The notes under the pieces are model-generated. The model made no database searches. It was not told the origin of the DNA and was given only the letters and a program-made list of their open reading frames with translations. A stretch of DNA of 64,000 nucleotides, from positions 20,398,001 through 20,462,000 of the forward strand of contig OX597818.1 in assembly GCA_951406725.2 (NCBI GenBank), read 5' to 3'. This stretch comes from Octopus vulgaris. Taxonomy: Eukaryota. Positions 33,931 through 41,838 of the stretch are shown here, piece after piece (the first letter of the stretch is position 1; the number at the start of each line of letters is the position of its first letter). The position numbers and the translations under genes are program-made.

Positions 33931-34045
33931 GACCCTTCATAAATCCAAAATTTTATTTTGGTATTTATGGGATCGCCTGTCTTCGAAGACTCCTATTGTC
34001 GTTCAGTGCTGGAGTAGATAGACAGCCGACAACTGATGAAGGGTC
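33931..34045 (+). ncRNA. Pseudoknotted CUGAUGA-containing RNA motif, copy 1
   Basis: Helices CTGTCT/AGACAG, ACTCC/GGAGT, TTGTCG/CGACAA and GACCCT/AGGGTC surround CTGATGA at 34033-34039. Confidence 0.5.
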
Positions 34046-34276
34046 GTTTTTGTGTTACTTGTCCTGTTTTCCATTTTTCTCTCATTGTTTGTGTATTTAA
34101 CTCATTTGTTTTCGTAGTTCATGTTGTTTTCTGCTGATGACGTTCTGTATCCATATATGCATATATATATATATGTGTGTGTGTGTGTGTGTGTGTGTGT
34201 GTGTGTGTGTGTGTGTGTGTGTGTGTGTGTGTGTGTGTGTGTGTGTGTGTGCATATATATATATATATATATATAT

Positions 34277-34472
34277 ACGACAGGCTTCTTTCAGTTTCCG
34301 TACACCAAATCCACCCTCAAGGCTTTGGTCGCGCGAGGCTATAGTAGAAGACACTTGCCCAAGCTGCCACGCTTTGGGTCTGAACCCGAAACCATGTAGT
34401 TGGTATGCAATGTACTTAACATACAGTCACTCCTGTGCCTATACCCACTCCTGCGCCTATAGCCACTTACGC
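34277..34472 (-). mobile_element. Family B SINE 5' half with duplicated head segment
   Basis: GACAGGCTTCTTTCAGTTTCCG...ACACTTGCCCAAG; CACTCCTG(T/C)GCCTATA is repeated. Confidence 0.75.
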
Positions 34473-35855
34473 CTATATATATATATATATATATATATAT
34501 ATAAATATATATATATATATATATATATATATATATATACATACATATATATACATATACATATACACATACATACATACATACATACATACATACATAC
34601 ATACATATATATATATATATATATATATATATATATATATATGCTCAGCATTAAACAGTACAATTGTATATTTGAAAATTAATGCAAATAAATATACCTC
34701 ATCTGATCGCCTTAATATTAGGTTACACCAACAATTCAACTCTAAATATATACACAAAATGTCTTCTTTATATATACAGTATAAGAAAGTCTGAAGCTAG
34801 ACAGAAGTGGATTGATTTAGCCAGTAAAAGTAAAGGGAGAAAGTTTCATATCAATTAAGTTTAAGTGCTAGATAGAATTTTAAGGAATAGACAATCCTAA
34901 GGGAAACAAGAAAAATAGAAACAAAAAATGGGAAATGGATGTAAAAATAAAGTTAAAAAAATGAATAGCGTAAAAATGCTTATAAAATATAAGGAAATAA
35001 TATAAATGAATTTTTAGTCAAAGTAACTATATAGAAGGATAAGTGGGGGACGAAACAGCTGGAGATTTGAAGATTCCACACAAATCAAAGATGAATGACA
35101 GATTATGTAAATCCAAGAAGTACTGTTCAATTTGACTTACACATTCCAACCAAACACCAAATATACTTTCCAACACAATGAACTGGAGTAAAACAAAAAA
35201 CAAAACATACACACATATACATAGAAGGACATCTACAGAAGCATATAAACATACATATAAGTATAAACTACACATACACACACACACACCCGTAGCACGA
35301 TTCTCTAAATTCATCTTATGCTACTCATTTATATGTATGTATATATGTATGAATGTATGTGTGTATGTATGTATGTGCGCGCATGCGCGCGTCTGTTTTT
35401 TAAAAAACTATTTTAAGGGCTTCTAACATTAGATCGATCTTACTACTTTTGGTATATATTTTATCAACTTTAGGAAGAACAAAAGTTGATCTTAACTAGC
35501 GTAATGGGAGGTAAGCAATGAAAACTGGAATATTCCAAGGTATTTTTATCAATGCACCAATTATTTTGCTTCCCACATGACACACACACACACATATATG
35601 TATATATGCATATGTGTATATATGTATATATGCATATATATATGTATACATACATACATACATACATACATGTGCATATATATATATGCACATGTATAAT
35701 ATATACATATATATGTATGTGTGCATATATATATATATATATATATATATATATATATATATATATATATATACAAAATGGGACAAGAAAGCAAAACATC
35801 CGGACATTTAGGTGATACAAAAAGCGACAACAAACATTCAGGACGGGTCATTTGA

Positions 35856-35977
35856 AGTTTTCTTTCCTCAGTTAAGTACCAGATTATCCTCGCAATTTCG
35901 GTTGATTATACTTGAAATTGCTCCAATCTGGCCAGCCCCAAGGAAAAACTAAGCCAAGAGCATTAGATTAGAAAGCA
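35856..35977 (-). ncRNA. Pseudoknotted CUGANGA motif, copy 2
   Basis: Minus strand reads CCAGAUU-GGA-GCAAU-U-UCAAGUA..GAA-AUUGC..AAUCUGG-UACUUAA-CUGAGGA-AAG. Confidence 0.5.
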
Positions 35978-36741
35978 GCGAATGTATACAAAAACAAGGA
36001 CGGAAAAAAACGGACAATGTTACACAAATACAATAAATAATAACAGGACATAACAACAGGTGTCTTTCGACTAAGGACGGATTAAATTAGGCTGGCGTGT
36101 GTGGAAATGAAGCCTTACAGCAGGGATAGAAGATTTCACAAACACATGGAAGAATATCGATGTTGCAATGTTGCACGAACAGCGGTCAGACCAAGAATAT
36201 ATATATGCATATGTGCAATAACATTGTTGTTGTGCATATATATATATATATATATATATATATATATGCACAACAATGTTATTGCACATATACATATATA
36301 TATATTTACATACATACACACACACTCACACACATATGACATATGTTCATACATATATCTGTATCGACTAAGAATGTTATTGAAGAACACGCTTTAAACT
36401 TTAACAAGCTGATGACAGCACAAACCGCTCAATAAAATATGACTCTGTTTTCTTTCGTTTGTGTGTAGTCTGATGTAAAGCTTACTCTATGAAGACATAC
36501 ACATATTTTTACAGTAAAACTTTTATATGAAAATATTTTTTTACGTAGAAACATAATCTTGTACCGTTATTCTCATACATATAAATATGCATTATAGAAA
36601 TATTTACTACCTGTACTAAAAAGTAACATTTGTTTTATTCAAATACATGCGTGTGAGTTAGTAGAAATTTAGCACATTTCAACGTATAAATATATAGGTT
36701 GTCGGTGAAACGTTGCACCCTCTATATACAATATATATTTA

Positions 36742-37153
36742 TTTCATTATTGCCCCCAGAGGGCTAAACATAGAGGGACAAACAAGAACAGACAAGGGGA
36801 TTAAGTCGATTACATCGACCCTACTGCGTAACTGGTACTTGTTTAATCGACCCCGAAAAGATGAAAGGCAAAGTCGACCTCGGCGGAATTTGAACTCAAA
36901 ACGTAGCGGCAGACGAAATACCTATTTCTTTGCTACCCACAAGGGGCTAAACACAGAGAAGACAAACAAGGACAGACAAACGGATTAAGTCGATTAGATC
37001 GACCCCAGTGCGTAACTGGTACTTAATTTATCGACCCCGAAAGGATAAAAGGCAAAGTCGACCTCGGCGGAATTTGAACTCAGAACGTAACGGCAGACGA
37101 AATACCGCGAAGCACTTTGCTCGGCGTGCTAACGTTTCTTCCAGCTCGCCGCC
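36742..37153 (-). mobile_element. Tandem dimer of family A SINE
   Basis: Two head-to-tail copies, one lacking the 5' A-box segment. Confidence 0.85.
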
Positions 37154-37228
37154 TCACAATATATATACACTATATATTGTTTGCAGGGGGGAGCGAACCC
37201 CAACCACCCTCTAGCATGTAACAGGATT

Positions 37229-39703: not shown

Positions 39704-40045
39704 TACCATCACTATTGCGACCATCATCACTATTGCTACCACCACCACCACCACTACCACCACAACCACCACCACTACCACCACCACCTCCACCACCACC
39801 ACCACTACCGCCGCCGCCGCCGCCACCACCATCACCACTACCGCCACCACCGCCACCACCGTCACCACCACCACCACCACCACCACCGTCACCACCACCA
39901 CCACCACCACTACTACCAACACCACCAGCGCCAGCACCAGCACCACCAGCACCACCATCATCATCATCATAACGACCTTTTTCATTACTGTCACTATCAT
40001 CATTAACCGCCACCACCATTGTCTTCCCTTCTACTATTACCACCA
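39704..40045. repeat. Degenerate (CAC/CGC/CAT)n trinucleotide array
   Basis: Visible directly; it explains the poly-His, poly-Pro and poly-Gly ORFs. Confidence 0.88.
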
Positions 40046-41181
40046 TACTATTACATACAGCCTGTTACTGAGACAGGAAGATGACAGCCGTTACGGTGCA
40101 CTCAACGGCAACGCACGCATCAACATCACACACACACACACACACGCACACACGTATCAATGACAAGAAATCACCCACACTACCACCCTTCCCTCCTCTA
40201 CACACACATAGACAGCTGCCATATCCTCACCACCACGACCATAATCCTCATACATCCACCTCCACCTCCTCCTCCTCCTCCTCCTCATCATCATCATCAT
40301 CATCATCGCTGAACACTCCCTGGGTGCCAGCATCCTTCGTAACACGACTGTGACCGGATGCCCAATTAGTTGTGCTCAGGATCAAATCCAATTAAAAGAC
40401 AGGTCGTATTGAGGTCAACACTAAAATTGTCTTAGGTTCATTGGTACACTGCGTATGTATGTATGTATGTATGTATGTATGTATGTATGTATGTATGTAT
40501 GTATGTATGTATAGACTAATGTATACACACACACACACACAAACATAAACACGCACTCTTTCTCCCTCTCACATACACACAAATACACGCATACACATAG
40601 GTATATGCTTATATTTGTGTGTATCTTTATGAATTTTCACATTAGGTTCATTGACATATAGTTTGTGTGTGTGTGTGTGTGTGTGTGTGTGTGTGTGTGT
40701 GTGTGTGTGTGTGTGTGTGTGTGTGTGTGTGTGTGTCTGAAGGCACTTATTGTGATCACTTTAGGACGGGAGCTTTCCAGTTAAAAATAACCATTTCACA
40801 AAATAACGCGTGATTATAAGTAGCTTTTATCTATCTATCTATACATACATACATACATGCATATATATATGTGTGTGTGTAATATATATATGTATATATA
40901 TGTATATATATATATATATATATATATATATATATATATATATATATATATATATATATATATATATATATTATGTGAAATAGAAAGATGAATAATCTTG
41001 TAGTAGATTAAACAAAAGTTTAACCGATACCTTAGTAGCAAAAATCACAGCAGTAAAACAGCACGGTTGGAGGTACAACCATATGGTGTTGCAACCGTGC
41101 GTTGGTGCGGATAATTGAAATTAGAACATTATTGGTGAATTGAAGAAATGGAGCTGAACGCAGATTGAACAGAAATCGTTT

Positions 41182-41275
41182 TATTTCATTCTACACGTGT
41201 TTCGAAAGGCACAAATTACCAAAATCCGATGGAATAATGGGACCATATTGCGTCTTTCTCTTCAGGAAGAAAATA
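41182..41275 (-). ncRNA. Type I hammerhead ribozyme (mirror copy)
   Basis: Reverse complement of 41437-41530. Confidence 0.75.
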
Positions 41276-41436
41276 GGAAATCCGTTGGAAAAACAAAAAC
41301 AGAACAGAGGCGGAGCAAAAACAAATCGAACTATGCTCCTAAGAGCCCATGGTGTTTCGCCATGGGCTCTTAGGAGCATAGTTCGATTTGTTTTTGCTCC
41401 GCCTCTGTTCTGTTTTTGTTTTTCCAACGGATTTCC

Positions 41437-41530
41437 TATTTTCTTCCTGAAGAGAAAGACACAATATGGTCCCATTATTCCATCGGATTTTGGTAATTTG
41501 TGCCTTTCGAAACACGTGTAGAATGAAATA
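41437..41530 (+). ncRNA. Type I hammerhead ribozyme with palindromic stem III
   Basis: UAUUUUCUUC-CUGAAGA-GAAAGACACAA...UUGUGCCUUUC-GAA-ACACGUGU-A|GAAUGAAAUA. Predicted cleavage after 41520 (GUA). Confidence 0.78.
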
Positions 41531-41713
41531 AAACGATTTCTGTTCAATCTGCGTTCAGCTCCATTTCTTCAATTCACCAATAATGTTATATATATATATA
41601 TATATATATATACATACAATAGAGAGCATTAAAACGTTCGGGCAGATAGACGATACATAAGCGGACAAGAGAAACAGCAATTAGGACAGGCAAAAAAAGA
41701 CGAGTCATTCTTG

Positions 41714-41838
41714 GCTTTCTTTCATCAGTCAAGTCCCAGAATTCACGTCCATTTCAGGCAGTTACACTTGAGGTGGTTCGATCTGGTTACCCTCCAAAAA
41801 GTCTAAGTTAAGAGTATTAGACTCCTTTGTAAGAAAGC
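41714..41838 (-). ncRNA. Pseudoknotted CUGAUGA motif, copy 3
   Basis: Minus strand reads GCUUUCUU-[hairpin]-CCAGA-UCGAA-CCA-CC-UCAAGU..GAAA-UGG..UCUGG-G-ACUUGA-CUGAUGA-AAGAAAGC. Confidence 0.55.

Follow-up and report, generated by a model that had tools for sequence, protein, structure and literature searches.

Candidate ribozyme loci in the window

The window analysed here is a stretch of 64,000 nucleotides (nt) from Octopus vulgaris (assembly GCA_951406725.2, contig OX597818.1, positions 20,398,001 to 20,462,000), which is microsatellite-rich animal DNA from a 2.8-Gb assembly. Three loci in it, for which an earlier note had proposed a rearranged or new self-cleaving ribozyme, were analysed together with their genomic relatives. 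The loci were found to be decayed members of high-copy, non-coding repeat families ending at (TA)n. We regard it as quite probable that these repeats carry all hammerhead elements in the order site block, GAAA block, CUGANGA block (SGC) with a split stem II, that intact members self-cleave and that the motif belongs to the Naiad group of Penelope-like elements (PLEs). The family data bore out the non-circularly permuted hammerhead of the note; the rearranged ribozyme is a hammerhead variant and not a new ribozyme class. All segments that the note had placed along the copies (S, hairpin, P1, P2, P3, CUGANGA and S') were found where it had put them and in the same order in all three.

Copy 1 (33931..34045, forward strand) lies in a family A non-autonomous element (33649..34157, forward strand), which is 5'-truncated and ends at (TA)n; the full unit is about 685 nt, as judged by BLAST against a full natural unit and by the extent of the family. 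The copy consists of S (33931-33936), hairpin H (33937-33970), a damaged stem II 5' strand (33971-33975), P1a (33977-33982), the stem III strand with the site (33989-33995), stem I (33996-34001), P1b (34020-34025), the stem I partner (34027-34032), CUGAUGA (34033-34039) and S' (34040-34045). By analogy with the hammerhead core the scissile bond is predicted at 33995..33996 on the forward strand (family site AUA), and the cut that the note had predicted after 33995 coincides with this family NUH site. A private 8-nt deletion between 34010 and 34011 takes out GAAA and the stem III 3' strand, of which the 'P2' read by the note in this copy was a by-product; GAAA is present in 23/30 family-A copies. 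An upstream UCGAA was considered as the GAAA block of copy 1 and rejected, being absent as a conserved feature from families B and D-G while the real GAAA is present in the family.

Copy 2 (35857..35977, reverse strand) is part of a family B non-autonomous element (35772..36197, reverse strand), also 5'-truncated and ending at (TA)n, with a full unit of about 740 nt. Its stem II 5' strand (35932-35937) is followed by P1a (35926-35931), the stem III strand with the site (35916-35921), a predicted cut between 35916 and 35915, stem I (35910-35915), the stem II 3' strand (35900-35905), GAAA with stem III (35892-35899), P1b (35879-35884), the stem I partner (35872-35877), CUGAGGA (35865-35871) and S' (35857-35864). 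The core is complete and the helices are weakened; relative to 30 family-B copies the hairpin has lost 7 nt by deletion, and stems I and II show single mismatches.

Copy 3 (41714..41838, reverse strand) belongs to a family C non-autonomous element (41617..42176, reverse strand), which is 5'-truncated, ends at (TA)n and has a full unit of about 740 nt; family C shares about 70% identity with family B around the ribozyme. Its parts are S (41831-41838), H (41795-41830), the stem II 5' strand (41788-41792), P1a (41782-41786), the stem III strand with the site (41772-41776, U16.1 changed to C), stem I (41766-41771), the stem II 3' strand (41756-41760), GAAA with stem III (41749-41755), P1b (41736-41740), the stem I partner (41729-41734), CUGAUGA (41722-41728) and S' (41714-41721), the cut position being between 41772 and 41771. 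It reads ACC where 26/30 family-C copies have AUC, a private mutation. The caveats of the note, that copy 1 lacks GAAA and copy 3 has CC at the UH position, are therefore real but reflect private damage and not the family state. Copies 1 and 3 are predicted to be dead and the strict descriptor given below was passed by 0/3 window copies. The three window copies are relics, apparently dead or weakened, and families D, F and G hold intact copies, among them G000:C3:33898981-33899171 (family D) and L324 (family G).

Architecture and base pairing of the motif

The order common to the families is 5'-S-[H]-IIa-P1a-IIIa-NUH-Ia-(1-5 nt)-IIb-GAAA-IIIb-P1b-Ib-CUGANGA-S'-3', and helices I, II, III and P1 covary. 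Stem II is split: its G10.1 strand (IIa) lies 5' in the motif, just after hairpin H, and pairs with the strand before GAAA (IIb). The closing helix S, usually with H, is inserted between A9 and G10.1; in family F, which has no H, S directly abuts IIa in a manual reading. Seven families (A-G) carry the motif in this genome, and the core CUGANGA, CGAAA and NUH (AUA, AUC, GUA or GUU) is kept in 7/7 family majorities. GAAA between stems II and III, the A15.1-U16.1 pair and a non-G nucleotide at position 17 occur together in 7/7 majorities; this set was broken privately in window copies 1 and 3.

Pairing within the seven majority sequences was complete for stem I (35/35), split stem II (35/35) and stem III (21/21), while strands swapped between families paired at 120/210, 125/210 and 60/126 positions respectively. 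These cross-family counts used core-anchored positions; because the best pairing decided which site and IIa positions were taken, a null test was called for. The first pair of split stem II is G-C in 7/7 families. The available text of Cervera and de la Pena 2014 (PMC4209133) describes a conserved G10.1-C11.1 pair in PLE hammerheads and a conserved nucleotide that follows position 9 and precedes 10.1; because a nucleotide sits there, this position would tolerate an insertion.

The note had read its P3 as stem I lying directly before CUGANGA, and this holds in 7/7 family majorities with a stem I of 6-8 base pairs. Its stem III, made by the internal GAA-A strand and the strand before the site, agrees with the complete pairing of this helix over the seven families. 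It was also right that the canonical stem II is weak: a contiguous stem II of S' with the strand before GAAA was tried and rejected, being paired at 11/35 positions and starting with A-C, C-C or U-C, and on 12 natural copies it was 15% paired, equal to shuffles. The true stem II (IIa/IIb) had been overlooked; it is made with the strand 5' of P1a and not with S'. P1 would correspond to the helix of type SGC in which stems I and II interact.

The alignment of all seven families by MAFFT was out of register, thus the automated pair count was made on 12 natural copies of the related families B, C, D and F. Double-sided changes were found in 13/21 pairs, with 44 cells against 12.8 in shuffles, in accordance with the covariation that the note had expected, and slid strands dropped to 21-43% paired. 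In P1, which played no part in selecting the copies, 4/5 pairs showed double changes. Compensation was also seen inside families, as G-C to A-U in split stem II of 5/30 family-C copies and as U-A to A-U in stem I of 3/30 family-B copies, where 2 others break the pair.

Repeat families and chance controls

The first look at the genome with copies 1, 2 and 3 as queries gave 3277 candidates for family A, 3509 for family B and 2062 for family C; 40 of each were scored and 30 fetched, picked for likeness to the window copy. Family D came from running the descriptor over 400 kb of arbitrarily chosen genome stretches, family E from a search with a Naiad pattern taken from the literature, which matched exactly 151 times (control 0), and families F and G from later loci. 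The units are 685-860 nt long, pyrimidine-rich and non-coding, and their 3' end is fixed at (TA)n, about 170 nt past the site in A-C and 147-150 nt in D. They show variable 5' truncation, partial tandems (in A-C) and inversions. No reverse transcriptase (RT) was found within the units of families A-C, and the tblastn matches in 5/261 loci and window belong to neighbouring elements. Families B, C and D have in common a conserved segment some 190 nt upstream of the ribozyme (window 41940-41965 and 36060-36085); in copy 3 (window 41940-41965) its opposite strand reads CUGAGGA.

Family D (loci L114 and L221-L250) is very young, as 40/40 scored matches were identical over 191 nt. It forms tandem arrays with a unit of 843-861 nt, up to four ribozymes and a longest ATG frame of 83 amino acids (aa); in 16/16 arrays the 3' end lies at (TA)n, 147-150 nt past the cut, and the 5' ends are scattered. 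One substitution was counted in 8 within-array pairs against a mean of 3.3 in 145 between-array pairs. Such near-identical units fit rolling-circle copying of one template; recent local duplication is an alternative source of the uniformity. The family-D stretch was present in 20/22 listed sequencing runs (none on record as RNA, 14 of these guessed to be RNA) from five coded organisms. Four of the runs consisted of contigs that showed no ends or joints, and one 874-nt contig spans the whole unit, representing either a circle or a collapsed tandem, which assembled contigs do not separate. The family F motif also occurs within a 1.3-kb tandem array that has at least 9 units (L364-L371, G000:C27:25601593-25615059).

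The strict descriptor demanded CUGANGA, an upstream CGAAA, NUH, stem I of at least 5 pairs, stem III of at least 3 plus the A-U pair and split stem II of at least 5. It gave 3 matches (two loci) in the 400 kb of arbitrarily chosen stretches, whereas dinucleotide shuffles of these stretches, 10 Mb in all, gave 0; on 1.52 Mb of search-enriched loci it gave 215 forward matches against 0 reversed. This suggests intact-core copies genome-wide of the order of ten thousand, with a wide error. The comparison with Rfam models suggested in the note gave, for four loci whose motifs are intact or nearly so, 0 matches at gathering score, and a window scan at E<=5 gave 352 matches with no ribozyme family among the 150 listed, all of which were microsatellite-driven miRNA-type. 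The Rfam models cannot represent this order.

Association with Naiad elements

The PLE surroundings had been guessed in the note from the TA-flanked ends, and the host is placed here in the world of Naiads and non-autonomous Penelope-like elements. In the available text of Craig 2021 (PMC8557442), Naiads targeting (TA)n are described as lacking canonical hammerheads, with 'core' or 'half-core' strings only. The same text gives the features in which the present families resemble Naiads, namely (TA)n targeting, a fixed 3' end, 5' truncation, partial tandems and inversions; unlike Naiads, families A-D, F and G encode no protein.

The published Naiad consensus file was read at 60/62, 15/23, 15/25 and 30/43 places for four CUGANGA variants and in three full parts; its line breaks hide some CUGANGA places, and entries were named after the headers next to them and the order of the metadata. 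Reading by eye identified the split motif in full in 9/54 consensi from four phyla, where S, H, I, II, III and P1 are all paired, in differing sequences. These are Naiad_Amil, Aacu, Anas, Naiad-2_Movir, Plae, EuTe, Obim, Ovul and one further entry (part 9), and by genus the motif lies in Naiad 3' untranslated regions (UTRs) of Acropora (3), Morbakka, Pomphorhynchus, Eulimnadia and Octopus (2). Six passages in the nematode stretch of the file (parts 13-16) showed by eye a type-CSG layout with block C intact. An identity of the published CSG-1 sequence with a nematode Naiad was considered and not retained, the likeness being one of layout with no sequence homology established. Ostracod and spider Naiads (PMC8557442 supplement, parts 16-19) were seen to have CCCC-CUGA[C/A]GA cores with an upstream GAAA; by eye their layout fits neither split-SGC nor CSG and is possibly a further permutation.

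In the octopus, 11/30 RT loci with Naiad-like RT remnants carry the family E motif 0.6-1.3 kb downstream (flanks of at most 1.5 kb); the RT of family E matches RVT_1 at E 2e-5, below the curated cut-off, and by eye it matches the 3' end of the published Naiad_Ovul, with a (TA)n 3' end. The family E copies examined for an N-terminal GIY-YIG in an intact open reading frame were truncated and broken. The motif probably serves the Naiad group of Penelope-like retrotransposons as their ribozyme. A descent of A-D, F and G from Naiads may be read from their architecture and target, and direct sequence descent from a Naiad was not seen for A-C.

Another PLE was observed among the 150 scored RT matches, at loci L302-L305 (e.g. 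G000:C18:76999000-77007000), an intact, near-identical and apparently active Neptune-like element of 753 aa with RT, a CxxxxCxxC linker and GIY-YIG at its C-terminus, which ends at (TA)n and has a degenerate minimal hammerhead-like motif about 150 nt before its 3' end. It is a candidate mobiliser of family D in trans.

Proposed mechanism and alternatives

Intact members would self-cleave after the NUH triplet, and from the analogy with the hammerhead core we hold it probable that they cut at the predicted bond. A9 would continue into S', and the G10.1 strand would arrive from H (directly from S in family F), giving a four-way junction (three-way in family F) in which S may stack on H and stem II on the core; P1 would tie stems I and II together as in type SGC. 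Tandem or read-through transcripts could be cut to unit length and ligated into a circle, which a Penelope-like RT/GIY-YIG protein may copy; nicked (TA)n would provide the primer, and copying would start from a short AU patch that lies 90-170 nt beyond the cut. By going round the template again and again it would produce head-to-tail arrays whose 3' end is fixed and whose 5' ends are random.

Several results weigh against this interpretation. The published Naiad sequences were read by eye only; no such motif was seen in Naiad_Ppla, Naiad_Dcar and Naiad_Omin, and the bivalve entries gave no match. No intact Naiad was found among 150 scored RT matches, nor did an autonomous element turn up that carries a ribozyme of A-D, F or G. 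The 12 copies of the pair count were pre-selected for intact stems I-III, so that their percent paired is given by construction, and B, C, D and F are related families. In D, E and F the S helix is short or varies, and the automatic parsing of S and P1 sometimes picked other partners than the manual parse. The conservation of CUGANGA and GAA expected by the note held for the core of the 7/7 majorities but was barely above the neighbouring positions in the old families A-C, where core identity was 0.955-0.976 against 0.939-0.968 elsewhere; such near-neutral decay is expected for dead-on-arrival copies, and selection is visible only between families. Precedents for a helical insertion at A9/G10.1 were looked for and no tested one was found. 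Such an insertion could disturb the A9-G10.1 metal site.

The genome itself gives a weak hint of cutting. Of 68 copy starts, 5 fell within -3..+5 of the site (0.85 expected, P=0.002), one being a locus already noticed beforehand, and against the local +/-60 nt the probability was P=0.025; 0/16 family-D arrays start at the predicted cut. Three alignments at loci L142 and L173, two from the same locus, stop one base beyond the predicted cut site. The cut site as 5' limit of upstream copies was rejected, as many upstream partial copies run through it.

That last result, with the lack of a pile-up at the site among the family-D ends, would fit a hammerhead-derived fold that is slow or silent alone and acts as a protein-binding or switch element (RT recognition, or an S-helix lock released by protein); genomic copies must carry an uncleaved or re-ligated site. 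Many Naiads also seem to thrive without the motif, and nested-only folding gave z from -0.6 to -4.2, with families D and G unremarkable (-0.6 and -0.9), although the folding programs used cannot score pseudoknots. This explanation is unlikely, as the catalytic nucleotides, G10.1-C11.1, A15.1-U16.1 and the non-G at 17 are kept in 7/7 families and 9 published elements, and the helices are rewritten while the core is kept, which binding alone would not require. Cleavage through an intermolecular or cross-unit fold, as a dimer or with strands from the next tandem unit, appears more improbable still: minimal PLE hammerheads are reported to act as dimers in the available part of a review (PMC6765202) and the present elements occur in tandem, but the partner strands are all found inside about 120 nt, the loops are not palindromic and the Naiad 3'UTRs contain one complete copy. 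Chance helices in decayed repeats, or a ribozyme class that has no relation to hammerheads, would agree with the silence of the Rfam searches but is very hard to credit, as those models cannot represent the order, the null controls were zero and every hammerhead core element maps with correct adjacency.

Other features of the window

Adjoining copy 3, a 231-nt inverted repeat at 41122-41590 is 99% complementary with a 7-nt spacer and is likely a fold-back insertion. A canonical minimal type I PLE-style hammerhead lies in another repeat at 30508-30535 (forward strand), with CUGACGA, a hairpin stem II, GAAA and a palindromic stem III, and similar type I motifs were seen in L277 and L310. On the reverse strand at 421-1242 a 273-aa frame is present, which we take to resemble the C-terminus of a Helitron/PIF1-type helicase.

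Significance

Returning to the putatively self-cleaving hammerhead variant, the data lean towards a broader view, held with less assurance than cleavage itself, in which permuted hammerheads are the standard Naiad ribozyme across animal phyla. They would occur in two forms, the nematode CSG form and, in cnidarians, acanthocephalans, crustaceans and cephalopods, a new split form that has a fourth helical arm within its catalytic core, and would drive active circular-RNA retrozymes, here in thousands of copies. If true, this answers why Naiads, which are dominant in many invertebrate genomes, seem to be without the hammerhead of other Penelope-like elements, and it gives non-circularly permuted hammerheads their first genomic and animal home. 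It would also break the published assumption of an uninterruptible CUGANGA block by a fourth opening point inside the core, reveal a retrozyme class missed by type I searches and offer a natural site for grafting helices or aptamers into the hammerhead.

Comparison with known hammerheads

The literature search, to which subscription papers did not contribute, found no permuted hammerhead described in Naiads, octopus or any animal genome. It also found no helix described at A9/G10.1, and the available text of a 2026 retrozyme preprint mentions neither; the Weinberg 2015 variants with additional helices stand outside this comparison, and are known here through the available part of a 2026 paper which cites them for hammerhead variants of that kind.

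Metazoan non-LTR (long terminal repeat) retrozymes (Cervera and de la Pena 2020; Li et al. 2026 preprint) are, in the available sections of these sources, non-autonomous hammerhead tandem repeats with proposed rolling-circle copying and a proposed PLE origin. Like them, the present families have non-coding tandem units that each carry a hammerhead motif (family D, and the partial tandems of A-C). Those retrozymes carry classical type I hammerheads, whereas here units of 690-860 nt carry the permuted split motif.

The classical types I, II and III have the cyclic order C-G-S and a pseudoknot-free core, while the order here is S-G-C. According to the available sections of Eckert 2023 (PMC10085705), which define blocks S, G and C, the non-circular orders SGC and CSG were validated in vitro, where both types cleave and require all four helices. 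Type CSG, represented by two soil metagenome sequences, has the same cyclic order as the present motif but is opened between stem III and the interaction helix with block C intact, unlike the split motif. With type SGC (HRIMA-1) the motif shares the order of site block, GAAA block and CUGANGA block, a short stem I-II linker (here 1-5 nt), the I-II interaction helix and two core pseudoknots. Block C is unbroken in the published SGC type, where at most 1-2 nt were assumed possible between CUGANGA and the stems; here a stem II strand and one interaction strand have moved 5', and helix S (with H) follows A9. SGC is known in that source from metatranscriptomes and from no genome of a known organism, whereas the present motif stands in animal genomes at high copy. 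The motif is a hammerhead variant that belongs neither to types I-III nor strictly to SGC; it can be described as the SGC cycle with its opening placed between A9 and G10.1, where helix S closes it.

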